A program made the translations under genes and the position numbers. Positions 1 to 23,379 of a DNA stretch of 64,000 nt are shown piece after piece (the first letter of the stretch is position 1; each line of letters opens with the position of its first letter). The stretch covers positions 97,203 through 161,202 of the forward strand of contig CAZIMC010000001.1 in NCBI GenBank assembly GCA_964540475.1, read 5' to 3'. This stretch comes from an uncultured Gammaproteobacteria bacterium. GTDB taxonomy: Bacteria; Patescibacteriota; Microgenomatia; UBA8517. The notes under the pieces are model-generated. The model ran no database searches. It had not been told where the DNA came from and was given only the letters and a program-made list of their open reading frames with translations.

Positions 1-2310
1 ACTGATACGCCACACGAGAAATTACGAGAGTTTGAAGCTATGGTGGATATTTTATCGTATGCCAACGAGCTCATTAACGATTTAAAACCCAGTATAAAGA
101 TCGATTGTGTAAAAGCTGTCCATTTTATTCTTCAAGACGAAGATAAAAACACAATTCAGCAGGAAATGACCTCTCTTCAAGAAGATATAAATTTCGTCAA
201 GGAGAGTTCTAAAAAATACCCCAAGAACTTTGATAAGTTAGGAATTCGACTTACAGATTTAAAGACACTCACAGAAAACAATCTTACAAGATTAGGCGAT
301 TTGGATTTCAATAGTCTAGTTCGATATGTAACTTTGAAGCAGAAACTAGAAAAAGAATTTCAAAGGATTCCTGAGCTGAATTACAGCCAAGCTAAAAAAG
401 ATATAGAAGAGCTGGTTACAACTCAAATGACTTACATTATGGACGGTCGATTGGTCAACTTTTATGACCAAAGCAGGAGTGATGCAAAAACATTAAGAGA
501 TATTATTAGAAAGAAACAAAGATTTCCAAAAGACGAATTTCTCAAGTTGAAAGAGGCTTTTCCCTGCATTTTGGCTGGAATTAGGGATTATGCAGAATAT
601 ATTCCACTCGAACCTGAAATTTTTGATTTAGTTGTCATTGATGAAGCTTCACAAGTAAGTATAGCCCAGGCATTTCCGGCACTGCTTCGAGCAAAAAAGG
701 TGTTGATTTTAGGAGATAAACGGCAATTCAGCAACGTCAAATCAGCACAGGTACGTACAGCCACTAATAGAGAGTATCTTAACGACCTCGAGAGAGTATT
801 CAAAGACAGTGTATCTACAGACCAGGCAAAGCTCTCAAGGCTTTCTAAATTCAACATTAAAACTTCAATTTTGGAATTTTTCGAATTTATCAGCAATTAT
901 CACACCCAACTACTAAAACATTTCCGGGGGTATAAAGAAACCATATCGTACTCCAACAGGTATTTTTACCAAAATAACTTGCAGGTAATGAAAATTCGAG
1001 GGAAAAACATCGATGATGTTTTGAAGTTTTCGTTCATTAAACACGATGGAAAAGAAGATCTTTATCCGAATACAAACTCCTTGGAGGGAGAGTTTATTAT
1101 CAATGAACTAAAAAAACTTAAGGAAGTTGATAGCAATTCTAGTGTATGCATAATCACACCGCACACTAACCAGCAAAAATTACTAATGGAGATGATAAGT
1201 AAGTTGCCAGAAAGAGATTTCTTCTTTGATAAACTCCAGTTGAAAATCATGACATTCGATACTTGTCAGGGCGAAGAAAGGGATATTGTCTTCTATTCGA
1301 TGGTCGCCACAGAAAATTCCGACAGACTTTGGGGTGTGTTCATTAAAGACTTAAGTCAAGTAGACATTGAGGAAGATGGGCAGATAAAAGCCCAACGCCT
1401 CAACGTTGGCTTTAGCCGAGCAAAGGAGCGTATGCACTTTGTCTTAAGTAAACCACTTGATAAATTCTCAGGTTCTGTAGGTGAAGCTCTTAGACATTAT
1501 TACAACGCTTTAGAAGAAGGTAAAAAGGAACCTTTACCAAATGAGGTTGATCCAAATTCACCTAAAGAAAAGGAGGTATTAAATTGGATCACACAGACTA
1601 CGTTTTGGCAGGATAACTTTCCTGAAAATTTAATGCTTAAGCCTCAATTCGAACTTGGAAAGTATCTTAAGCAACTCGATAAGACGTATACCTATCCCAA
1701 TTACAAGGTGGATTTCCTTCTGGTCTACAAAGATCCAAGACACAATACCCATAAAATTATCATTGAATACGACGGTTTTGAAGAACATTTTAGAAATATC
1801 GATGAAGTAAATGAATATAACTACACCGAATATTACTCAGACGACGACGTTTATCGTCAAAAGGTACTAGAGAGTTATGGCTATAAATTCTTGAGAATTA
1901 ATAGATTTAATTCAGGAGAAGACCCCATTCAAACAATCAATACCAGGATTGAGAATCTTGTCAAAAATTACAGCGCTAGCCATAAACGCCTAAGTCGAAT
2001 CTATGAAACAATAGAAAATTTACAAAACGGACAGATGAAGGAGTGTCCGAAATGTAATGAAGTTAGATCCGCCGAAGATTTCAAAGACTCATCGCTTATT
2101 ACCGGGTATGGCAGATTTTGCAAGTACTGTAAAGGTAATATCTCATATTCAGAGTTAAGAAGTTCTTTGTCAGACAATACAGACTTAGAGAGTGACGACA
2201 AAACATGTCCGCGATGTAATTCAAAAATGATACTGAGAAGCGGCAGATACGGAAAGTTTTATGGGTGTTCCCGATTCCCTTATTGTAGAGGGACTCGTCA
2301 ATACAACTAA
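1..2310 (+). CDS. 5'-truncated SF1 (Upf1/Dna2-like) DNA helicase C-terminal half fused to a DUF559/Vsr-like endonuclease domain and a C-terminal C4 zinc ribbon (topoisomerase-type)
   Basis: Frame is open from nt 1 with no upstream stop; listed ORF 40..2310. Helicase motifs: DEASQ (motif II), TFDTCQGEERDIV, LNVGFSRAKERMHFV (motif VI). DUF559-like block KIIIEYDGFEEHF...YGYKFLRINRF. Terminal CPRCNSKMILRSGRYGKFYGCSRFPYC zinc ribbon. Confidence 0.75.
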   Translation, partial: TDTPHEKLREFEAMVDILSYANELINDLKPSIKIDCVKAVHFILQDEDKNTIQQEMTSLQEDINFVKESSKKYPKNFDKLGIRLTDLKTLTENNLTRLGDLDFNSLVRYVTLKQKLEKEFQRIPELNYSQAKKDIEELVTTQMTYIMDGRLVNFYDQSRSDAKTLRDIIRKKQRFPKDEFLKLKEAFPCILAGIRDYAEYIPLEPEIFDLVVIDEASQVSIAQAFPALLRAKKVLILGDKRQFSNVKSAQVRTATNREYLNDLERVFKDSVSTDQAKLSRLSKFNIKTSILEFFEFISNYHTQLLKHFRGYKETISYSNRYFYQNNLQVMKIRGKNIDDVLKFSFIKHDGKEDLYPNTNSLEGEFIINELKKLKEVDSNSSVCIITPHTNQQKLLMEMISKLPERDFFFDKLQLKIMTFDTCQGEERDIVFYSMVATENSDRLWGVFIKDLSQVDIEEDGQIKAQRLNVGFSRAKERMHFVLSKPLDKFSGSVGEALRHYYNALEEGKKEPLPNEVDPNSPKEKEVLNWITQTTFWQDNFPENLMLKPQFELGKYLKQLDKTYTYPNYKVDFLLVYKDPRHNTHKIIIEYDGFEEHFRNIDEVNEYNYTEYYSDDDVYRQKVLESYGYKFLRINRFNSGEDPIQTINTRIENLVKNYSASHKRLSRIYETIENLQNGQMKECPKCNEVRSAEDFKDSSLITGYGRFCKYCKGNISYSELRSSLSDNTDLESDDKTCPRCNSKMILRSGRYGKFYGCSRFPYCRGTRQYN

Positions 2311-2314
2311 GAAT

Positions 2315-3355
2315 ATGGATAACCAAGACTATAAATGCCCTTTATGCGGTAGTTTGTTGACCAGAGATCGTTGGGTAAAGATAACGGGTCGATGGTCAGA
2401 ATTTGAGAAAGAGCGGGAAGAAAACAAAAAGCTACTTGAGAGATATAAAAAAGAGAAGGCCGAAAGGGAGAAGAAATATAAGATGGAACTAAAAAAGGCT
2501 GCGAAACTAGCAGAAGCTACGGGAATGGCGAAGGGAATAAAAAAGGAAAAAAGCGAAAGAGATAGAATGGGCAAAATGCTTCAAAATCAAGCAAAAGCAA
2601 TTATTGCTAGCAATAAAAAAATTCAAGAATTACAAAAACAACTTAAAGAGGGAAAAACGCCACAAACAGCAGGCTTCGATTATGAAAAGGAGGTAGTAAG
2701 GATTTTATCTGAGAATTTTCCAGACGATATTTTAAAACCCACAGGCAAAGAGGGCGATGTAATTCAACACGTTACTTATAACAATAATCAGGTTGGCTGC
2801 ATTCTATATGAATGTAAAAAAACCGATAAGTTTAATAACTCCTTTATTAGAGAAGTATTAAAGCACCAAGATACTGCTCGAGCCGAGTTTGCAGTAATCG
2901 TTACTCATGCATTGAAGGAAGGAAAATCTAAGTTTTTTATAGAGGAAAACGTCATTGTTATAGATCCACTGGGCCTTCTAGATGTAGCCTCGCTTTTAAG
3001 GAGTTCACTACTAGAGATGCACAGACTTAAGTTAACCAAAGAAGAGGTAAAGGAAAAGGGTGTCCAAATTTTACGCTATATGCAGTCAGGTGAATTTAGA
3101 AATAACATGGTCGATACGATTGAGAAATCAAGAAAGGCATACGAACTTTTAGTGAAAGAGGTGAAAGATCACGAAAAGGCTTGGACTGAAAGGATTAAGC
3201 TATATTATTCAATTCACGAAAACATACAAGGAGTTAGGAGGTCAATTGGTGAAATAGTTACAGGAGGAGCAGTCGAATTAGAAGGGTATAACTTTGTTCA
3301 GCTAACAGGTTCAGAATTACCTAAACTATTGAGCGGTGAAAGAACTACGCAATAA
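2315..3355 (+). CDS. DUF2130-like protein: N-terminal CxxC, long K/E-rich coiled coil, C-terminal PD-(D/E)xK nuclease-like core
   Basis: ORF 2261..3355; ATG at 2315 lies 4 nt after the upstream stop. CPLCGS motif, KE-rich coiled coil, GDVIQHV...ILYECKKT (D...E.K) nuclease-like signature. Confidence 0.55.
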   Translation: MDNQDYKCPLCGSLLTRDRWVKITGRWSEFEKEREENKKLLERYKKEKAEREKKYKMELKKAAKLAEATGMAKGIKKEKSERDRMGKMLQNQAKAIIASNKKIQELQKQLKEGKTPQTAGFDYEKEVVRILSENFPDDILKPTGKEGDVIQHVTYNNNQVGCILYECKKTDKFNNSFIREVLKHQDTARAEFAVIVTHALKEGKSKFFIEENVIVIDPLGLLDVASLLRSSLLEMHRLKLTKEEVKEKGVQILRYMQSGEFRNNMVDTIEKSRKAYELLVKEVKDHEKAWTERIKLYYSIHENIQGVRRSIGEIVTGGAVELEGYNFVQLTGSELPKLLSGERTTQ

Positions 3356-3427
3356 AGATATAAAAGTAATATTTGAAAAGTTTTTGGCCTTCTGTGGGAT
3401 TGGGCTTACAACTAATAAAAATGCTCT

Positions 3428-4777
3428 ATGCAAAACAGAGACGATATAAAAAACCAGCAAACTCTTAGTAGAATTGATGACTACTTAAAATCTAATAAGA
3501 ATGACAAAGGCCAAACTTTATCAAAGGATGAAATTGAGGCGTTGCGGTTTGGTAGAAGATTGATTGCCGAGCAGTTAGAAATACCCAGCTATGAAGTCCA
3601 CTGGTCTGACGGTACTACAAAATCTACAAAGATTAGCTTTAAAGACCAAATGGTTCGAATTATCCCTGAGTCCGAGGACGAAATATACGGACAGTATTAC
3701 CACTCTCCTGATAAAAAATACTTTGTTGTCACAAAAGGCAGTTTTTGGACGGACTATGGAAAAACGGAAAAATTCACTAAGGGATGGGTGTTTCTTTTTG
3801 AGGGCAATACAAAATGCCTTTGGAAAAAAGAGTTTATCGCACCTGATAAGGCATATGTAAATAACAATGGCAATGTTGTTGTAATTGACTCACTTAATAC
3901 TGATTATGGCAAGAAGTACACAAGTGGCCTTTTTATTGTTGATAAGACAAACAAAGATATTTTCACCCGTCTGTTTACTTCTATCTTAGACAAGGTCTTA
4001 TACTCGCAAAAAAGAAACGAATTGTTATGTCTAACAAACAATCCGGAGAGAGCGTTTTTTCTTGTCGATCTTGCTACCCAGAAAGTTATTTATAAAGCAA
4101 AATTGAAGCGGGCATTTGAAAAGTGGTATTTAGAAAATGCCAATTATTCATTTAAAGATGACCATATCAATATCTGGAATGAAGATTTGTTTGAACATAT
4201 CCGAACTAGATTGCAAGAGGAGGAGGACATAAAAACGCCATCAGACGATCAGGCAGAACATTTAGAGCATATACAAGTCGAGACTGAGAGAACTACTGAA
4301 GAATATGAGCGAGAGCAATTTTTGGAAATCTATACTAAACCTGAGTTCAGCATTTTTGAAGAGTATGAAATATTAAAATGTGAGAAAGAGGGAAAAGAAT
4401 TCGAAGGCTTGGTATCTGAATACTACTTTGATTATCTTCACTCTATGGGTATTTCCACGATGGACGATTTGCTCAATACAGATATCACGGTGCTTATCAA
4501 CAGGACTGGCGATGGACTCAGACCAGGACCAGGAAGAATATACGGCATCAATAATAGGGTCTCAAGTGAACTTGGAAGACAGCTTAAAGGAATCGAAGAT
4601 TATATTCCTGTATCACCAAGAATAAGAACAGAACTCGAAAAGATTGGTGTTAACAAACTTGGTGATTGTGCTAACTTCTCCAGAAGCGAACTATTAAAAA
4701 TTAAAGGTATAGGTGTAAAAGTGTTGGAATACATATCAAGTGCATTGCAAGAATTTCACCAGAACGAAATAAAATAA
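3428..4777 (+). CDS. hypothetical protein with C-terminal helix-hairpin-helix repeats (RNAP alpha-CTD-like)
   Basis: 449-aa ORF; C-terminal SELLKIKGIGVKVLEYI and DDLLNTDITVLINRTG HhH-like motifs; no other recognisable domain. Confidence 0.5.
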   Translation: MQNRDDIKNQQTLSRIDDYLKSNKNDKGQTLSKDEIEALRFGRRLIAEQLEIPSYEVHWSDGTTKSTKISFKDQMVRIIPESEDEIYGQYYHSPDKKYFVVTKGSFWTDYGKTEKFTKGWVFLFEGNTKCLWKKEFIAPDKAYVNNNGNVVVIDSLNTDYGKKYTSGLFIVDKTNKDIFTRLFTSILDKVLYSQKRNELLCLTNNPERAFFLVDLATQKVIYKAKLKRAFEKWYLENANYSFKDDHINIWNEDLFEHIRTRLQEEEDIKTPSDDQAEHLEHIQVETERTTEEYEREQFLEIYTKPEFSIFEEYEILKCEKEGKEFEGLVSEYYFDYLHSMGISTMDDLLNTDITVLINRTGDGLRPGPGRIYGINNRVSSELGRQLKGIEDYIPVSPRIRTELEKIGVNKLGDCANFSRSELLKIKGIGVKVLEYISSALQEFHQNEIK

Positions 4778-4788
4778 TCAGAAAAGAA

Positions 4789-4826
4789 GGTCAGTAGTAT
4801 TACCGACCCTCTTTTTCTTGCCGAGC
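4789..4826. terminator. putative bidirectional rho-independent terminator between convergent genes
   Basis: Imperfect stem GGTCAGT / ACCGACC followed by CTCTTTTTCTT, between 3428..4777 (+) and 4827..5060 (-). Confidence 0.3.
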
Positions 4827-5060
4827 TTATTTTTTACTCTTTACCACTTCTTTAGCAGGTTCTTTCGTTATTTCAGGCTTTACTACTTCCTCTGAAATTT
4901 TCTGTTTTGCTGCCGCTAATTTCTCTTTTCTCTTTAGCATGTAGCGTGCTCGTGCTGCTTTGCCCTTCACCGACTCCTGATAGCGTTTGCGGGCTTCTTT
5001 ACCCCTGGCAGACCTGGCGTATTTCTTTTGTGCTTGTGTCCATTTTCCCATTGTCATCAC
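4827..5060 (-). CDS. small highly basic Lys/Arg-rich protein, function unknown
   Basis: 77-aa ORF, KR-rich (KKYARSARGKEARKRY...). Sits just downstream of the XRE gene on the same strand. Confidence 0.4.
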   Translation of the reverse strand: MMTMGKWTQAQKKYARSARGKEARKRYQESVKGKAARARYMLKRKEKLAAAKQKISEEVVKPEITKEPAKEVVKSKK

Positions 5061-5125
5061 CTCCTAACGGACTATCCTGATATATTTATTATCAAGACCC
5101 TACTGGAAGAAGGCACTCCGGCAAT

Positions 5126-5323
5126 TTATGTATGCTTACTGATGTACCGCCTCAAAGCTCTGCGTAAATCTTTCTTACAGCGGATACTGGGATTGACCCT
5201 GCTTGTTTCTATGAGTGAAATATATGTCTGGGTGTATCCTGAGAGTTTTGCCAGCCTTTGTTGGCTTACAAACACGCCTTCGTTAACTCGCGTTTGGTAT
5301 AGGTAGTTTGCAAAATCGACCAT
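5126..5323 (-). CDS. XRE-family helix-turn-helix transcriptional regulator
   Basis: HTH_3-like SQQRLAKLSGYTQTYISLIETSRVNPS. Start taken at MVDF; ORF listed to 5335. Confidence 0.65.
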   Translation of the reverse strand: MVDFANYLYQTRVNEGVFVSQQRLAKLSGYTQTYISLIETSRVNPSIRCKKDLRRALRRYISKHT

Positions 5324-5867
5324 TGGTAGCCTCAATTACCTGATATTTGGATTCGGAATCCAATAACTCCTTCAAAACCTCTAACTGAACCTTGACCTGT
5401 GCGACTAAATCTCTAGGGAATAACTGGTAAAGAACATTCGGCGAGCTATGGAGCAGAGTTGGATTTTGATTCCACAATAGTTCTATTTGGGGCGCTGCAT
5501 CAGTCTCTTTTGCATGTTCGAACATTGCAGAAATAGTAGGCTCTTTCTTTTTAGCTTCTTCGATAAATTGAACAGGACTTTCGTCATCCACACGCACAAT
5601 TTTGTCTTGTAAAATTAAGTTCGAACATATACCTTGCAGTATTGATCTTTTCTGTAGCTTATCTCCATGTTCAAACCAATGTCTTGCATAACAAGCAAAG
5701 TTGAATGTGTTTTCAGTAAGTTCTACCCATTTACTAATCCTTCGATCTGTATCATTGAGCTTCTCCCTTTTTAGTACCCAGGAGTGATACAATAGAAGGT
5801 AATCGGCTGCCCATCGTGCAGCCTTTTTTTGTATGAGTAAATACAGAGCAGTAGGCAGTAAACTCAA
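5283..5867 (-). CDS. hypothetical protein, upstream of and overlapping the XRE gene
   Basis: 194-aa ORF with no recognisable motif. Same strand as the XRE gene with a 41-bp overlap, suggesting co-transcription. Confidence 0.45.
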   Translation of the reverse strand: MSLLPTALYLLIQKKAARWAADYLLLYHSWVLKREKLNDTDRRISKWVELTENTFNFACYARHWFEHGDKLQKRSILQGICSNLILQDKIVRVDDESPVQFIEEAKKKEPTISAMFEHAKETDAAPQIELLWNQNPTLLHSSPNVLYQLFPRDLVAQVKVQLEVLKELLDSESKYQVIEATNGRFCKLPIPNAS

Positions 5868-6582
5868 GAACGAATCCGATCCTTCTCTTGCAAAGGAACA
5901 TAAGGCTGGGGCTGTCGTTGAATTAGTTCAACCAGCTAAGGATGATCGCTGGGGCAGATACTACTTCAATCACTATCAGCGTTATTGGAATATCCTGAAC
6001 GAATCTCGAAGACACTACAATAGAGCTCTTATTTATCTTAAAAAATGTCGTCAGTTGCCAGTCGATACAAAAACTCAAAATCGACATGTACCTGAAGAAC
6101 TAAGAGACAAACTTGAAATGCACTCAATGAAATATCTTGTCCTCCTGAAGATGGGGTATGAATATATGACTCTGGAGATGTTGCCATCAATAGATCATAT
6201 ACAAGAAGCAAAACAAGGTATAGCAAAGACAGATTGGGATAAGGTTGATCTATTGAAAAGAATAAGCTCATTGAAGAGCAAATTGTCCATAAGCAAAGAC
6301 GTCCCTGACTGTCTCTTCCCACTTTTTGATCGAAGAGACATTGTTGAACACCCTAATCAAGAGCGCTTATACAATGCTACCGCTAATGGCTGGAAAAATA
6401 ATCATTTAGCATGGGTTTTAAGTGGTGATATGGAAGGGACAATGGAAAAGATTGTTGATTTTACAAGCGAAATAATCAAAGTGTTTGATGAATATGTAAA
6501 AAATAATCCCATTCCTGGAACATTGGAAGGAGTAGTAAGGGGATTAAAAGCATCCGAGTCATATAAAAATCCTAAAAAATAA
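5833..6582 (+). CDS. hypothetical protein, first gene of a tight three-gene operon
   Basis: 249-aa ORF; diverges from the 5283..5867 gene with a 35-bp overlap; next gene starts 3 bp after its stop. Confidence 0.5.
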   Translation: MSKYRAVGSKLKNESDPSLAKEHKAGAVVELVQPAKDDRWGRYYFNHYQRYWNILNESRRHYNRALIYLKKCRQLPVDTKTQNRHVPEELRDKLEMHSMKYLVLLKMGYEYMTLEMLPSIDHIQEAKQGIAKTDWDKVDLLKRISSLKSKLSISKDVPDCLFPLFDRRDIVEHPNQERLYNATANGWKNNHLAWVLSGDMEGTMEKIVDFTSEIIKVFDEYVKNNPIPGTLEGVVRGLKASESYKNPKK

Positions 6583-6584
6583 AC

Positions 6585-7103
6585 ATGAACAACTCTAATC
6601 TTAGATATATCAATACTGCATTAGAAGGAGCTAAGTATCACGAAGATCAAGCATTTCAAGTAAGAGGTAATCAACCAAATGATTACAATAAAATTGTTTT
6701 TCATCTGAGGGCATATTTTTGGGAGCTTTGGTCTGCCTGGGATTATGTACTGCAGGAAACCAACAGGCAAACCTTTCATTTAGAGCCACATGAGGTACGC
6801 AGAAATATCCTAAATAAAGTTAGGAAAGAAGTTCCTGACTATAAATTTCTCGAACTGCTCGAATCCATTCAGGAAAATGAAAGATTAAAAAGAATTATGT
6901 GGTTGCGTGACCATGCTCACAAATGGCAAATTGAGCCATATATGATTGACCATGATGATGAAAAAGTAAATGTCATTGCCTTAAATAATCTTGATTCACG
7001 AGATAAGTTTTTAGATAGGCAAATTAACATAGATAGAAATGATTTATATTTTATGCAAGAGTTCATAAACACACTTTCGAAGGAAGGTTTTTTTGAAGCA
7101 TGA
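6585..7103 (+). CDS. hypothetical protein with N-terminal LxxAKYH motif (paralogue of next gene's N-terminus)
   Basis: 172 aa; INTALEGAKYHEDQAF resembles LKKLERAKYHLNIL in the next ORF; 4-bp overlap with the next gene. Confidence 0.5.
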   Translation: MNNSNLRYINTALEGAKYHEDQAFQVRGNQPNDYNKIVFHLRAYFWELWSAWDYVLQETNRQTFHLEPHEVRRNILNKVRKEVPDYKFLELLESIQENERLKRIMWLRDHAHKWQIEPYMIDHDDEKVNVIALNNLDSRDKFLDRQINIDRNDLYFMQEFINTLSKEGFFEA

Positions 7104-7864
7104 ACTCCTTAAAAAAACTTGAAAGAGCAAAGTATCACCTCAATATACTTACTCAGGAAGTAAAAGAATTTATTCAAAGCCAACCATACAAAATTTACAC
7201 TACCGAAGAAGCTAATGGAGATCTGGTTTACAGATTGAAAATTATTAAGCCTGTTCCAGAAGAGTGGAGTTTAACAATTGGAGACATAATACATAATCTT
7301 CGTTCATCCCTGGATCTTCTGATTTCAGATCTCCTGATAAAGAATGGGAAACAACCTGATAATAGAAGTGCGTTTCCAATTTATGAAACTGAGACAGAAT
7401 TGTTAAAAGATTCTCAACACAGAATTACTGGAATAACTCCAGCAGCTCGAAAAGTCATTTCCAAGATTAAACCATACAAGGGAGGAAACCAGATACTTTG
7501 GAAGCTACATAAACTTGATATTCTTGATAAACATAAACTAATTATTCCTGTAGGATCTGCATCGAGAAGTGTAGGTATTGATTTTAATTCCTTATTGCAC
7601 ACTCAAGGATTTTCAAAAGATTTAAAGTTACCCCCAATTTTTATTAGACCTGCTGACACACAATTTCCATTAAAAGATGGTATGGGATTATTTTCTATAT
7701 TAAAACAGGCTCGGACAGGAGGTGAGCCACCTCCCCATTCGTTTGCTTTTGATATTGCATTTGGTGAAGGAGATTTAGTAATGGGCGAGCCTATTATAGA
7801 AACATTAAATTTGTTTGTTATAGAAGTAGAGAGTATATTAAATAAGTTCAAAAAATTACTGTAG
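7100..7864 (+). CDS. hypothetical protein with N-terminal LxxAKYH motif
   Basis: 254 aa; ATGA overlap with the upstream gene. Confidence 0.5.
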   Translation: MNSLKKLERAKYHLNILTQEVKEFIQSQPYKIYTTEEANGDLVYRLKIIKPVPEEWSLTIGDIIHNLRSSLDLLISDLLIKNGKQPDNRSAFPIYETETELLKDSQHRITGITPAARKVISKIKPYKGGNQILWKLHKLDILDKHKLIIPVGSASRSVGIDFNSLLHTQGFSKDLKLPPIFIRPADTQFPLKDGMGLFSILKQARTGGEPPPHSFAFDIAFGEGDLVMGEPIIETLNLFVIEVESILNKFKKLL

Positions 7865-19196: not shown

Positions 19197-19276
19197 GGGG
19201 TGAGGGAGGGATTCGTGTGCACAGTTGATTCTCACCTTGGCACTATCGAATACCGCACTCAACGCGAGTCTGCGAG
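19197..19276 (-). repeat. tRNA-3'-end direct-repeat module downstream of tRNA-Ser(GGA): 17-bp copy of the tRNA 3' end plus a conserved insert
   Basis: GGTGAGGGAGGGATTCG at 19199..19215 repeats 19278..19294 (tRNA 3' end). Insert carries CTTGGCACTATC and TGTGCACA and is near-identical to the module at 20286..20367. Confidence 0.7.
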
Positions 19277-19363
19277 CGGTGAGGGAGGGATTCGAACCCT
19301 CGGTAACCTTGCGGCTACACACGATCTCCAATCGTGCTCTTTAGACCACTCAGACACCTCACC
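19277..19363 (-). tRNA. tRNA-Ser (anticodon GGA), class II with long variable arm
   Basis: Reverse complement folds as GGTGAGG acceptor, 3-bp D stem, anticodon stem CACGA/TCGTG with loop TTGGAGA, long variable arm, T arm GAGGGTTCGAATCCCTC. Confidence 0.85.
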
Positions 19364-19377
19364 AGAGCTAAATTATA

Positions 19378-19896
19378 TCAAAGTTGATGGGATTTAAGCT
19401 CCAATATCTCTTTTGCCTTTTTTAAAATCTCTTTATCACCCTTAAATGTTAGTTTTGTCAAAGCTTTCTTTAATGGGAAGAATTTGGCTTGCCGGACCTC
19501 TTTGTCGTGATTATTAGTATCTCCGCCGGCATACTTCATCAAATAAAATGTGACGATTTTGAATATCTTTGCACCATCCCAGTGAAAAAAATATTTCTGG
19601 TCGGCAATCTTTTCAATTAAACTTGCTCTCACTCCACACTCCTCCGCTACTTCACGAACAGCGGTAGCCTTTGATGATTCGCCGGGGTCGATATGTCCCT
19701 TGGGAAACTGCCACCGATCGGTTCCTGCAGGATTAATAAGCAACCACTCCATTTTGGCACTGTCAGGGCTTTTTCTGAAAACAATCCCTCCAGCCGAGAA
19801 CTCTCGTTTAAGCGGGGAGCTCGGGTTCTTCCTCTTTTTTGTTTCTTGGGGATTTCTCCCAGATTTTGAGTACTTCTTTTGCATTTTTGAAAACAT
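19378..19896 (-). CDS. Nudix hydrolase
   Basis: Nudix box GHIDPGESSKATAVREVAEECG. The N-terminal K-rich extension may not be translated; overlaps the upstream Nudix gene. Confidence 0.75.
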   Translation of the reverse strand: MFSKMQKKYSKSGRNPQETKKRKNPSSPLKREFSAGGIVFRKSPDSAKMEWLLINPAGTDRWQFPKGHIDPGESSKATAVREVAEECGVRASLIEKIADQKYFFHWDGAKIFKIVTFYLMKYAGGDTNNHDKEVRQAKFFPLKKALTKLTFKGDKEILKKAKEILELKSHQL

Positions 19897-20269
19897 CCTT
19901 TTCTCGCTTTAAATGGACCGCACTACGAGCGCGGCTTAACTCCATCCATTTATAATCGCTAAATCCCAAGACTTCGCCGCCCGCTCGTTGCATCATAAGA
20001 TAATAGTAAAATTTCTGTGAGACCGTTCTACCATTAACTATGGCAGAACCAGTGGTTCTAAATGCCTCTTCCAAAACCCGTGCATTCATTCCGGCCATTT
20101 CACCGGTCATTCTTAAAGCTGCCCTAATGGAGGATTCCCCTCTTCTGACTGTCACTTTGGGTATTTCCCACTTTGCATCATCAGAGATTTTAACCACCAA
20201 AAAGGTCTTTTTCCCATTATTTTCTTTAAAAACCACTGCTCCACTTATAACTATTTGGTTATTTTTCAT
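19808..20269 (-). CDS. Nudix hydrolase
   Basis: Nudix box RRGESSIRAALRMTGEMAG. Start taken at MKNNQ (ATG complement at 20267..20269) because the listed ORF extends through the tRNA and repeat. Confidence 0.75.
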   Translation of the reverse strand: MKNNQIVISGAVVFKENNGKKTFLVVKISDDAKWEIPKVTVRRGESSIRAALRMTGEMAGMNARVLEEAFRTTGSAIVNGRTVSQKFYYYLMMQRAGGEVLGFSDYKWMELSRARSAVHLKREKDVFKNAKEVLKIWEKSPRNKKEEEPELPA

Positions 20270-20285
20270 ATTTATGTTTTCTTCT

Positions 20286-20367
20286 CGTGCGGTGAGGGTG
20301 GGATTCGTGTGCACAACTTCTCTTTGCTTGGCACTATCGAATACCACACTCAACGCGAGTCCATGTG
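20286..20367 (-). repeat. tRNA-3'-end direct-repeat module downstream of tRNA-Ser(TGA): 20-bp copy of the tRNA 3' end plus a conserved insert
   Basis: TGCGGTGAGGGTGGGATTCG at 20288..20307 repeats 20366..20385. Insert shares CTTGGCACTATCGAATACCRCACTCAACGCGAGTC and TGTGCACA with the 19197 module. Confidence 0.7.
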
Positions 20368-20456
20368 CGGTGAGGGTGGGATTCGAACCCACGGTAACGA
20401 AAATTCGCTACGTCGGTTTTCAAAACCGATGCACTAGTCCGCTATGCGACCTCACC
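20368..20456 (-). tRNA. tRNA-Ser (anticodon TGA), class II
   Basis: Reverse complement GGTGAGGTCGCATAGCGGACTAGTGCATCGGTTTTGAAAACCGACG...GGGTTCGAATCCCACCCTCACCG. Anticodon stem TCGGT/ACCGA, loop TTTGAAA. Confidence 0.85.
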
Positions 20457-20506
20457 GAGTCTGCGAGGTGAGTAGCACAAGCTTGCCTTATGCGACCTCA
20501 CCCCAA
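20443..20506 (-). repeat. 14-bp direct duplication of the tRNA-Ser(TGA) 5' end, 50 bp upstream of the gene
   Basis: TATGCGACCTCACC at 20443..20456 (tRNA 5' end, plus-strand view) and again at 20493..20506. The intervening GAGTCTGCGAG also occurs at 19267..19277. Confidence 0.6.
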
Positions 20507-20529
20507 TCTACCATTGCCGCACCTTAGAG

Positions 20530-21306: not shown

Positions 21307-21391
21307 GGTGGGGTGCCGGAGTGGCCAAACGGGATGGTTTCGAAAACCATATCGGTTTTCCGATACGCGAGTTCGAATCTCGCCTCCACCG
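21307..21391 (+). tRNA. tRNA-Ser (anticodon CGA), class II
   Basis: GGTGGGGTGCCGGAGTGGCCAAACGGGATGGTTTCGAAAACCAT...GCGAGTTCGAATCTCGCCTCCACCG. Anticodon stem ATGGT/ACCAT, loop TTCGAAA. Confidence 0.85.
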
Positions 21392-21447
21392 CCGCACAGG
21401 TCGCAATTTGCTTAAAGCAAATTTGGCATGCATTCTATACCCTCCGC

Positions 21448-22125
21448 CTACCTCACTACGGCTAATCCCCAAACTCGTTTTGCTCCCGCCCGTTTTAAAA
21501 CCTTTGCTGCCTCTTTAAGAGTTGAGCCAGTTGTAAAAACATCATCGAATATGATGTAGTCGGTAGATTGTAGTTTGTAGGTAGAATTAAGAGAAAACAC
21601 ATTTTTGACGTTTACTCTCCTTTCTTCCGCCATTACTTCGGTTTGCGATGGGGTAATTTTTTTCTTTATTAATAAATCCGGTATAAACTTGATCTTTAAA
21701 AAACCGGAAACTTCTCTTCCTAAAAACTCCGACTGATTAAAACCTCTCCAGTTTTGTCTTAAATACTGCAGTGGTATCGATGTTAAAACTTCAAAATCTT
21801 TCAAAACAGATGTGCTCGGGTGCCCACCAAGCGCCTTAAGTGTCAAGTTTATAATTTCCTCACCCACTTGCTTTGCAAACTTGTACTTTAAACTTATAAT
21901 TGCCCGCTTTAAAACCCCCTCATAATTCCAAAGACAACTTAGTCCATCAAGGCCAAATTTACGTTTACATTTATAATGTGTCATTCCGTCAATACTTGCA
22001 TTTTCGCAATAAGGACAAACCTGCTTGGCTGCCCGAACTTTTTCTAAGCAAACTAAGCATATGTATCTCCCCACCGCACCGCAACCTAGACATTTTTTGG
22101 GAAATAAAAGATCCAAAGCGTCCAT
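21448..22125 (-). CDS. comFC: ComF-family phosphoribosyltransferase-domain protein (ComFC-like)
   Basis: N-terminal double CxxC zinc ribbon (CLGCG...CLVCL...CPYC); C-terminal PRTase motif IIFDDVFTTGSTLKEAAKVL. Confidence 0.75.
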   Translation of the reverse strand: MDALDLLFPKKCLGCGAVGRYICLVCLEKVRAAKQVCPYCENASIDGMTHYKCKRKFGLDGLSCLWNYEGVLKRAIISLKYKFAKQVGEEIINLTLKALGGHPSTSVLKDFEVLTSIPLQYLRQNWRGFNQSEFLGREVSGFLKIKFIPDLLIKKKITPSQTEVMAEERRVNVKNVFSLNSTYKLQSTDYIIFDDVFTTGSTLKEAAKVLKRAGAKRVWGLAVVR

Positions 22126-22145: not shown

Positions 22146-22574
22146 ATGAGAATATTTAACAAACGTGCTAGATATCTTTATCAAATCCAAGAGGCAGAAA
22201 TCGAGGCAGGTCTTGTGCTAACAGGGGCAGAGGCTAAGTCTTTGCGTGAAGGAAGAGGTGATTTAAGTCAGGCACATATTAGGTTAATTGCAGACGGACT
22301 TTATCTTATAAACGCCAATGTTCCAACAAATAATCCCCAAAACCCACCCACACGCATGAGGAAGCTGCTTTTAAATAAGCATGAAATTGTTTCTCTGACA
22401 ACCAAAATGAAGCAGCAAAAATTGATTCTCGTGCCTCTTGCGGTGTATAATAGAGGCCGGCTATTTAAGCTCGAAGTGGGTTTGGGTAAACCCAAAAGAA
22501 AGTTTGAAAAGCGCGAGTATTTAAAGGAAAAAGATTTAAAGCGCGATATCCAAAAAGAGCTTAAATTGCGATGA
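22146..22574 (+). CDS. smpB: SsrA-binding protein SmpB
   Basis: NKRARYLYQIQEAEIEAGLVLTGAEAKSLR...LLLNKHEI...KLEVGLGKPKRKFEKRE. tmRNA lies immediately downstream. Confidence 0.9.
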   Translation: MRIFNKRARYLYQIQEAEIEAGLVLTGAEAKSLREGRGDLSQAHIRLIADGLYLINANVPTNNPQNPPTRMRKLLLNKHEIVSLTTKMKQQKLILVPLAVYNRGRLFKLEVGLGKPKRKFEKREYLKEKDLKRDIQKELKLR

Positions 22575-22575
22575 T

Positions 22576-22944
22576 GGGGGCGACCGGTTTCGACGGAATG
22601 TACTTTAACAAACTGCAAGCCGAGTTTGATTCAAACTCGTAAAACAGAATCAAAACCTTAAGCGTCAATACAAAAAACGCTCCAGCTTATGCTGGCGTAA
22701 GCAATTACGCTTTCGCCTAAGCGGTGTCTTCTATTTCGCATCCTGATCGAATTAGAAAGGCATAAACCAATCGGGATCGGTTTTTGGTTGCTGGTTGTAG
22801 GCCCGAAACTTAAATACAACTAACCTTACTTTTTGGTTTCCAGTTAATCGGTTAGCCTTAAAGGAAATTGCTGGATTAACTAAGCTTGTAGTAGTTTTCT
22901 AAAGGAATTTTCGGATGAGGGTTCAATTCCCTCCGCCTCCACTC
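22576..22944 (+). ncRNA. ssrA: tmRNA (ssrA)
   Basis: 5' GGGGGCGACCGGTTTCGACGG and 3' GGTTCAATTCCCTCCGCCTCCA can form a tRNA-like acceptor. Internal tag-like reading frame ends ...NYAFA-stop. Directly follows smpB. Confidence 0.85.
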
Positions 22945-23025
22945 ACATTCGTTCGTTTCGTCTCCAGGACTTGATAGTGCCAAGATTGGTAATGCTGTGC
23001 ACGCAATTCCCTCCGCCTCCACACT
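22945..23025 (+). repeat. tmRNA-3'-end direct-repeat module: 19-bp copy of the ssrA 3' end 80 bp downstream, with the same insert motifs as the tRNA-Ser modules
   Basis: CAATTCCCTCCGCCTCCAC at 22924..22942 and at 23004..23022. Insert contains GATAGTGCCAAG (22973..22984) and TGTGCAC (22996..23002). Confidence 0.7.
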
Positions 23026-23142
23026 TCGCCCTTTTTAACAAAAGGGCTTCGCGTGGCAAGCCACCTTTCGATAAATCAAGGCTGACGCTGCAATTGTAAA
23101 GAAGTGTGTCCCGCGAAGTCTTGACGAAGTGGGACAGTTGAC

Positions 23143-23379
23143 ATGTTTTACGTATATATTCTCCAGCTAACAGAAGGTTCGTTTTACGTTGGTTACTCTA
23201 CGGATCTTGTTAAGAGAATGAAATACCATAAAACCGGGAAAGTGATATCAACAAGTAATTCGAAGTCCCTAATTCTTGTGTTTTATGCTGCCTTTAAAAA
23301 TAAATCTAAAGCTATTAACTTTGAAAAGTACCTCAAATCGAGTTCTGGCTCAGCTTTCAGAAGCAAACGGCTAATTTAA
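23143..23379 (+). CDS. small GIY-YIG nuclease-superfamily protein (COG2827-like)
   Basis: YVYILQLTEGSFYVGYSTDLVKRMKYHKTG matches the GIY...YIG motifs plus conserved R and H residues; 78 aa. Confidence 0.65.
   Translation: MFYVYILQLTEGSFYVGYSTDLVKRMKYHKTGKVISTSNSKSLILVFYAAFKNKSKAINFEKYLKSSSGSAFRSKRLI

Follow-up and report, generated by a model that had tools for sequence, protein, structure and literature searches.

Palindromic non-coding modules with duplicated 3′ ends behind tRNA and tmRNA genes of Patescibacteria: a candidate T-loop insertion cassette

The tmRNA locus in the 64,000-nucleotide (nt) stretch of DNA analysed here (the window, from contig CAZIMC010000001.1, assigned to the Microgenomatia within the Patescibacteriota) contains an ssrA gene whose 3′ end is present twice. 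The gene itself has the features of a standard one-piece transfer-messenger RNA (tmRNA), with a full-length model match, a tag frame and smpB directly 5′ of it. Copy 1 of the repeat lies within the gene and spans T-loop residue C56, the 3′ strands of the T-stem and of the acceptor, the discriminator A and one further base. Copy 2 repeats these 19 nt exactly behind an insert of 61 nt (22943..23003), which holds no open reading frame (ORF) and carries GATAGTGCCAAG at 22973..22984 and TGTGCAC at 22996..23002. Downstream of copy 2 follow a structured leader and a gene for a small GIY-YIG protein. A sequence-only reading of this DNA had reported the duplicated end, the occurrence of both motifs in the same order in inserts behind two tRNA-Ser genes, and the adjacent nuclease gene, and all three observations are borne out by our analysis (Table 1). 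Mobile DNA classically lands in tRNA and tmRNA genes, and to our knowledge the known invaders of these genes carry their own integrase or ribozyme.

Table 1. Coordinates of the features discussed. Positions refer to the window unless a locus (L number) is named.
Feature	Position	Strand	Evidence or remark
smpB, tmRNA partner gene	22146..22574	+	Pfam SmpB E=1e-35; anchor for fetching syntenic relatives
tmRNA gene (ssrA), intact, one-piece, tag APAYAGVSNYAFA	22576..22942	+	ARAGORN; Rfam RF00023, 156 bits, model positions 1-374
Direct-repeat copy 1 (CAATTCCCTCCGCCTCCAC), within the functional tmRNA gene	22924..22942	+	Sequence read and repeat search
Direct-repeat copy 2 (CAATTCCCTCCGCCTCCAC), exact 19 nt	23004..23022	+	Sequence read and repeat search
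Spacer and left arm of the tmRNA module	22943..22969	+	Alignments, duplex matrix, fold
CTTG, left half of the 4-bp lower stem	22970..22973	+	3 of 4 pair with CAAT, the first 4 nt of copy 2
Conserved core ATAGTGCCAAG-N11-TGTGCACG, hairpin GTGCCA/TG(T)GCAC	22974..23003	+	Motif scan, alignments, covariation analysis
Structured leader of the GIY-YIG cassette	23021..23142	+	Alignments; folds; no Rfam family
Stand-alone GIY-YIG protein, 78 amino acids, UPF0213/COG2827 type	23143..23379	+	Pfam PF01541 E=3e-14, residues 1-70
tRNA-Ser(TGA) gene	20367..20456	-	
Module and copy 2 behind tRNA-Ser(TGA)	20289..20369	-	21-nt repeat; covariance model 80.1 bits
tRNA-Ser(GGA) gene	19276..19363	-	
Module and copy 2 behind tRNA-Ser(GGA)	19197..19278	-	17-nt repeat, then one mismatch; covariance model 74.8 bits
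Conserved leaders of GIY-YIG homologues	L030 2321..2500; L032 2359..2500; L033 1270..1410; L037 ~2330..2500		
LAGLIDADG ORF	L013 11606..12262; L038 625..1281; L039 and L041 2001..2657		

The insert behind the tmRNA gene belongs to a family. The window contains the composite pattern GATAGTGCCAAG-N8-16-TGTGCAC three times, compared to an expectation of 0 from 100 shuffles, and each occurrence lies directly 3′ of an RNA gene, namely tmRNA, tRNA-Ser(GGA) and tRNA-Ser(TGA), with gaps of 11, 12 and 11 nt, respectively. Half of the window's tRNA-type genes (three of six) carry the module. A covariance model built from 8 modules, the three window copies included, regains these copies at 74–80 bits, and the next best match in the 64 kb scores 10 bits. 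Exact-pattern scans, each made with one pattern, extended the family to other genomes. Among species-representative genomes there was a single match (L001), behind tRNA-Glu(CTC) and with a duplicated end of 37 nt. In metagenome contigs 25 loci matched; 18 of them are unrelated and have no tRNA nearby, and 7 are true modules, located behind tmRNA (L003, L021), tRNA-Glu (L005, L022), tRNA-Leu(CAG) (L013) and tRNA-Leu(GAG) (L024) and at a contig end (L020). When applied to syntenic relatives obtained via their SmpB homologues, the covariance model finds diverged modules behind tmRNA (L027, 46.5 bits; L029, 29.6 bits) and behind tRNA-Ser(TGA) of L027 (27.8 bits). Both the 12-mer and the heptamer recur in copies from other genomes. 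The modules are thus a true element family, and the earlier proposal that three RNA genes of the window carry one homologous family is correct. The module-bearing contigs and their relatives have a gene content typical of Patescibacteria/Microgenomates, and the modules are specific to tRNA and tmRNA genes of Microgenomates-like members of this group. L001 (CAYMZX010000007.1) carries the label Gammaproteobacteria; over the ~210 nt compared it is identical to L005 and L022 in tRNA-Glu, module and flank, its GC content is low, and the contig may be misbinned.

All copies share one layout. The repeated segment, termed X in the following, begins at T-loop residue C56 in every copy that has its gene on the contig, and runs through the 3′ strand of the T-stem, the 3′ strand of the acceptor, the discriminator and about two more bases. 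Its length is 17, 19, 20 (n = 4), 21, ~35 (tRNA-Ser of L027) or 37 nt (tRNA-Glu of L001), the last two reaching into the flank. The module is non-coding and ~45–65 nt in size. Between the copies of X lie a spacer of 5–10 nt, often TCGCAGACTCG-like, then a left arm and then the conserved core, which consists of ATAGTGCCAAG, 11–13 variable nt and the 8-bp palindrome TGTGCACA. In most copies other than that of the window tmRNA the left arm is an imperfect reverse complement of X. The window tmRNA module has mostly lost this complementarity, and its core terminates in TGTGCACG instead of the palindrome.

The consensus fold obtained with RNAalifold is a hairpin with an upper stem GTGCCA/TG(T)GCAC and a lower stem of 4 bp, in which the 4 nt preceding ATAG pair with the first 4 nt of copy 2. 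Covariation links this lower stem to the T-loop variant of the target gene, as TTCG/CGAA, ATTG/CAAT, CTTG/CAAG, CTCG/CGAG and TTTG/CGAA are all found. Over 11 sequences the covariation score is 0.19 compared to 0.09±0.02 for shuffles, and none of 500 shuffles scores as high. In the same set 89% of the cells are paired, and this fraction drops to 22–55% if the 3′ partners are slid by 1–3 columns. Changes on both sides of a pair are seen in 9 cells at two of the four lower-stem pairs and in 12 cells across the full structure of 13 pairs. In a duplex matrix computed without the 4 nt of the lower stem, the left arm of 7 out of 10 modules has its own X as best partner. We also considered whether the left stem side copies the 5′ half of the T-loop; CTTG/CAAG, ATTG/CAAT and CTCG/CGAG fit the complement, and this possibility was rejected.

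In four copies the hairpin of the whole module exceeds shuffles in stability (z −2.4 to −3.2), and the whole-module fold of the window tmRNA copy is no more stable than its shuffles. Sense and antisense strands of the modules fold about equally well. This palindromy without a signature of the RNA strand therefore looks like a property of the DNA. The modules resemble miniature inverted-repeat transposable elements (MITEs) in being small, non-coding and present in several copies per genome (three in 64 kb). No terminal inverted repeats are found at the module ends, and the inverted arms are copies of the target and not specific to the element. The duplication of 17–37 nt also differs from the short fixed 2–10 bp of MITEs.

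Occupancy of the target genes varies. tRNA-Leu(CAG) carries a module in L013 and is empty in L024, where the next tRNA follows after 3 nt, and in L038; tRNA-Leu(GAG) carries a module in L024 and is empty in L013, L038, L039 and L041. Which tRNA bears the module differs between related genomes. Behind tmRNA, a module is present in all five related lineages sampled (the window, L027/L028, L029 and L003/L021, with SmpB ~55–65% identical). Here spacer and loop have drifted, and the motifs and, mostly, copy 2 are kept; in L029 both core and copy 2 are decaying. Taken together, these patterns fit either ongoing turnover or re-insertion, or a degree of selection on the module.

The two tRNA-Ser modules of the window allow a further observation. 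The X segments of the two genes differ at two positions, and the left arm of the tRNA-Ser(GGA) module fits the end of tRNA-Ser(TGA) better than the end of its own gene, which suggests that this module was copied from the sister gene. Two neighbouring paralogues of a NUDIX hydrolase (19378..20272) lie between the two genes, and the pair is also found in L027. Between tRNA-Ser(GCT) and tRNA-Ser(TGA), at 20457..20528, there is an exact 14-nt copy of the tRNA-Ser(TGA) 5′ end (20489..20502), followed by ...GGCAAGCTTGTGCTACTCACC and then by TCGCAGACTC, which is the left-end motif of the module. The segment is partly conserved in L029 and may be a collapsed older unit of tRNA plus module. At 21307..21452, the window's tRNA-Ser(CGA) differs throughout from the tRNA-Ser(CGA) of the syntenic relatives L027 and L029, and 42 nt 3′ of the gene lies TCTATACCCTCCGCC (21436..21450), a relic of the T-stem and the 3′ strand of the acceptor as found in these relatives. 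The 42 nt in between contain a hairpin (GCAATTTGCTT/AAGCAAATT(T)G) and a palindrome GCATGC beside the relic, an arrangement with a module-like layout and a different sequence.

The GIY-YIG gene has a distribution of its own. Its product of 78 amino acids is a single-domain protein with no linked DNA-binding domain, similar to the stand-alone UPF0213/COG2827 proteins BH0048 and EF2693. The closest solved structure is BH0048 (PDB 1zg2, E=1.7e-8), and 1ywl is also matched (E=9e-5). Against TIGR01453, the model for group I intron endonucleases, the protein reaches 17 bits with a cut-off of 56, and it has no PHROG match. With UPF0213/COG2827 proteins and the Seg proteins of T4 it shares the catalytic domain, a patchy presence and tRNA-type gene neighbours; unlike I-TevI and Seg, it lacks a DNA-binding domain, and a structured leader separates its gene from the ...TCCAC end which the leader abuts. 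In the syntenic relatives L003, L021, L027 and L029 the order is ComF-like gene, SmpB, tmRNA, module and a convergent gene, with no GIY-YIG gene. Copy 2 is 20 nt long in these relatives, ends in T and abuts the convergent gene; in the window this final T is replaced by the GIY-YIG cassette. Segment 23023..23379 is therefore an insertion in the window lineage, right after the ...CTCCAC of copy 2. The closest homologues (78 amino acids, 54–67% identical) lie 178 nt behind tmRNA (L030), 83–140 nt behind tRNA-Ala(GGC) (L032, L033, L034) or behind a bare ...GTCCAC (L037). All five are in the same orientation, and none is accompanied by a module or a duplicated end. The end ...TCCAC is common to tmRNA and tRNA-Ala(GGC), and the target of the cassette therefore appears to be the Ala-type acceptor end. 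In L032, three tandem repeats of ~39 nt (TAATCTGAACGTAGTAAAGATTACAAACTTGTTTA...) directly follow the GIY-YIG gene (2790..2905).

The leader is common to the window and four of the five other contexts (all except L034), and starts at the last bases of the RNA gene. Its consensus reads (A/T)CTTCGCC, a variable hairpin, T(A/T)CG..GTGG-loop-CCAC and GCGAAG(T/A)GTGTCCC...GGGAC. The closing stem comprises up to 9 bp and extends over the terminal AC of the tRNA or tmRNA; one of its pairs shows a compensatory exchange from A-U to U-A. In the window it is 7 bp long (ACACTTC/GAAGTGT), with AC contributed by the end of copy 2; the window leader contains the hairpins GCCCTTTT/AAAAGGGC (23028..23047) and GTGG/CCAC (23053..23064), and a third hairpin, GTCCC...GGGAC, lies 5′ of the start codon. 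Compared to shuffles, the folds of the leaders are far more stable (z −2.9 to −4.5). No Rfam family is matched, and the covariance model detects no degenerate second module in the window leader. The hairpins of the GC-rich spacer in the earlier description are hence real, but they belong to the conserved leader of the GIY-YIG cassette and not to the module.

From these alignments and contexts, gene and leader together are independent of the module, neither its remnant nor its agent, and probably form a second selfish cassette. It would insert just after the ...TCCAC end of Ala-type acceptor RNAs, and copy 2 would have mimicked such an end. The sequence-only reading had considered the GIY-YIG protein a remnant or an active part of whatever generates the footprints, and asked whether its homologues sit beside RNA genes with duplicated ends. 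Modules without GIY-YIG gene (L003, L021, L027, L029) and homologues without module contradict the former. The neighbourhood of tmRNA or tRNA-Ala(GGC) is confirmed for L030, L032, L033 and L034, but without duplicated ends. The protein is indeed of the COG2827/UPF0213 type, yet its gene is no core gene scattered over unrelated loci.

A second nuclease gene is found near a module. An ORF for a LAGLIDADG protein of 218 amino acids, a member of a family with 872 homologues mostly from Microgenomates, lies 3′ of the module in L013. In four of four contexts examined it ends within tRNA-Leu(GAG), 36 nt from the 5′ end of this gene, and its position is unaffected by the module of the neighbouring tRNA, which is present in L013 and missing in L038. 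This gene, a third element independent of the module, looks like that of a free-standing homing endonuclease tied to tRNA-Leu(GAG).

How did the modules reach their positions? We propose, with a probability of about one half, that the module is a non-autonomous, non-coding, palindromic DNA insertion cassette that integrates in the T-loop, with an independent GIY-YIG cassette behind copy 2 in the window. The module would be the integrated form of a cassette mobilised in trans. In the integrated copy, the T-loop of the gene is followed by X, a short spacer, X′ (the imperfect inverted X), the core and the second X. The arms X′ and X would fold, on either DNA strand, into a hairpin that rebuilds the duplex of the segment from T-loop to 3′ end beside the core, and the core would serve as recognition element. 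A recombinase would then exchange strands between T55 and C56 in a Campbell-type integration, as for an integron attC site or a folded CTX attP site. The gene would remain intact, with a second X left behind downstream. Where genes have X in common, as the two tRNA-Ser genes do, spread may also proceed via repair copying between repeats. We favour this model because the geometry of T-loop integration is combined with a tiny gene-less interior, many tRNA targets and an inverted target copy with covariation at the junction.

Precedents exist for single parts of this model. Integron attC sites and the attP site of CTX phage are imperfect palindromes whose folded form rebuilds the duplex site; they tolerate mismatches in the stem and have no self-encoded enzyme. 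By analogy, the folded form of the module would likewise rebuild a duplex site. The module differs from attC in that the apical core is conserved and the arms are variable, which is the reverse of attC, and it contains no site sequence of the IntI or Xer type. Group I introns occupy four T-loop subsites of tmRNA (PMC11915505), and by our reading of the numbering in that paper the module junction, after UU, is one of these four subsites. In contrast to these introns the module measures 61 nt, has no catalytic core and mostly no terminal G, and leaves the gene uninterrupted. No Intron_gpI match was found at the gathering threshold or at E<=10, and the tmRNA is contiguous. In tRNAs of Patescibacteria, group I introns have been reported at position 35/36 (PMC13011429). 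A full-text search of the literature, with incomplete coverage, found no description of the module or of the GIY-YIG leader arrangement.

Several points weigh against cassette mobilisation in trans. No mobilising enzyme and no excised form was found: none of the ~29 window ORFs scanned against Pfam belongs to a recombinase, transposase or Cas1 family, and none was recognised among the remaining ORFs read by eye. No autonomous relative was found in the window, the fetched loci or the viral contigs, with genome and metagenome scans that covered one exact pattern each. Two scans of viral contigs, one of them with circularly permuted motif order, were empty, BLAST against phages gave matches only to phage tmRNA 3′ ends, and we reject a phage or plasmid origin. 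A Campbell-type cassette must carry the X of each target, which leaves the gain of new X and X′ on changing the tRNA unexplained. The range of X from 17 to 37 nt fits neither a transposase with fixed stagger nor a simple rule, and the arms of the tmRNA modules in the window and in L027 show poor complementarity. Presence of the tmRNA module at the same place in five lineages, with conserved motifs and copy 2, could equally mean a host function. Finally, the divergence between empty and filled sites prevents a definition of the junctions to the base, and the whole sample comprises ~10 independent copies. In L041, some 1.6 kb downstream of tRNA-Leu(GAG), there is a gene for a large serine recombinase (4282..4657; domains Resolvase, Recombinase and Zn_ribbon_recom), and enzymes of this type are candidates for recombination at the T-loop.

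A further possibility, which we regard as unlikely though worth stating, is an element without any recombinase of its own, whose arms are templated by or co-evolve with the target and whose self-folding hairpin, by offering the last 20 bp of a tRNA gene as a duplex, hijacks a host enzyme for insertion in the T-loop. Copy 2 would then, once fixed, act as a decoy landing pad that shields the essential gene from other invaders, of which the GIY-YIG cassette behind copy 2 would be an example.

It appears rather improbable that the module is a structured 3′ trailer of use to the host, for precursor processing or termination, as decoy against attackers of tRNA 3′ ends, or as a spare repeat for the repair of breaks in the T-loop. 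Such a function would account for the retention of the tmRNA module in five lineages, where motifs and copy 2 are exact and spacer and loop diverged, and for the GIY-YIG cassette sitting behind copy 2 and not behind the gene. It is at odds with a module at only three of six tRNA-type genes in the window, with the change of the occupied gene between related genomes, with the decay of copy 2 and core in L029, and with a fold that shows no strand asymmetry and matches no Rfam family. Among functional signals, promoters of the sigma-54 and sigma-70 types, an intrinsic terminator and a site for integration host factor were considered for the core by eye only, and rejected since spacings or second elements do not fit and are not conserved. 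A reading akin to a guide RNA (scaffold plus a 20-nt guide beside GGTT) was rejected as well: the left arm would occlude the guide, there is no nuclease partner, and the intact target persists in the genome.

Transposon-like staggered cuts at T55/C56 and ~20 nt downstream, by a casposase (Cas1-like) or another enzyme, are equally improbable in our view. Repair of the gaps would duplicate X, and the inverted arm would arise later. The duplicated segment is always exact and always that of the target itself, which follows from target-site duplication without a step of acquisition. Casposons duplicate 14–15 bp at the 3′ ends of tRNA genes, and the module resembles casposon insertion and the repeat duplication of CRISPR arrays, both driven by Cas1-family enzymes, in the long duplication of a defined segment from a fixed boundary. 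But lengths from 17 to 37 nt do not represent a fixed stagger, terminal inverted repeats are missing at the module ends, no cas1 or transposase gene was seen among the window ORFs, and staggered cuts leave the target-matched left arm and the covarying 4-bp stem without a role. Transposons of the IS91 type (GTTC target) and the IS200/IS605 type do not fit either, as there is a single hairpin, the gene is duplicated and not split, and there is no transposase. Likewise, an origin of copy 2 from a primer-binding site or a mature tRNA was rejected: the repeat contains genomic bases past the discriminator and not CCA, and that of L001 includes 18 nt of flank.

The initial interpretation as integrase footprints retains one part. 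The geometry of a repeat of ~20 nt from T-loop to 3′ end is that of a T-loop integration site, as in the ssrA islands of Dehalococcoides, where a 20-nt repeat starts midway through the T-loop, the gene is intact, a conserved motif lies against the displaced copy and a serine recombinase is present (PMC3146451). The module shares with these islands (serine recombinase DsiB) and T-loop-type sites the repeat geometry, with the gene's 3′ segment as direct repeat, and the conserved motif beside the displaced copy. Prophages or islands in each T-loop may have lost nearly all of their interior and left attL and attR ~60 nt apart, and the relic of the 3′ end at tRNA-Ser(CGA) suggests recombination near T-loops in this lineage. 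The islands, however, comprise kilobases and encode their recombinase; the module has ~60 nt of interior and neither recombinase gene nor cargo remnant between its repeats. It is also one family at many tRNA species, and it contains an inverted target copy that a deletion scar does not predict. Above all, the same interior of ~60 nt recurs with the same boundaries at at least six target genes in several genomes. Separate deletions would not converge in this way, and independent integrase scars are therefore a still more doubtful explanation; the module is an entity of its own and not a set of deletion scars.

Least probable by far are by-products of the repair of breaks made by homing endonucleases (the adjacent GIY-YIG protein or the LAGLIDADG protein of L013), in essence the idea of the sequence-only reading: in the window and in L013 a module does have a nuclease gene downstream, and homing endonucleases are reported to drive the amplification of segments in phage tRNA regions (PMC13096335), but the distributions of the elements largely refute this origin, since relatives with the module lack GIY-YIG and loci of tRNA-Ala and tmRNA without a module have it, LAGLIDADG goes with the 5′ end of tRNA-Leu(GAG) regardless of the neighbouring module, and a conserved core of 31 nt cannot arise from break repair alone.

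Beyond the loci discussed so far, the window contains a defence-like cluster at 40..7864, with a superfamily-1 helicase carrying a topoisomerase zinc ribbon and a restriction endonuclease-like domain, a DUF2130 protein and a HEPN-like protein.

In our best reading, the module is a miniature variant of T-loop integrating elements that contains no gene, unusual for a palindromic architecture that is matched to each target. New compared to known T-loop integration are the tiny interior without gene, the spread of one family over many tRNA species and the inverted target copy with covariation at the junction. A T-loop junction and a repeat of 20 bp are made here by an entity of ~60 nt with a target-matched inverted arm. 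If mobile, the module would define a minimal substrate for T-loop-specific recombination and would point to a new enzyme in Patescibacteria. Duplicated tRNA ends are routinely used to set the boundaries of genomic islands, and modules of this kind would yield false calls in annotation. The GIY-YIG result provides a first genomic context for the uncharacterised UPF0213 family. With the GIY-YIG cassette and the LAGLIDADG gene in addition to the module, the flanks of tRNA genes in these reduced genomes would therefore hold several independent selfish elements.

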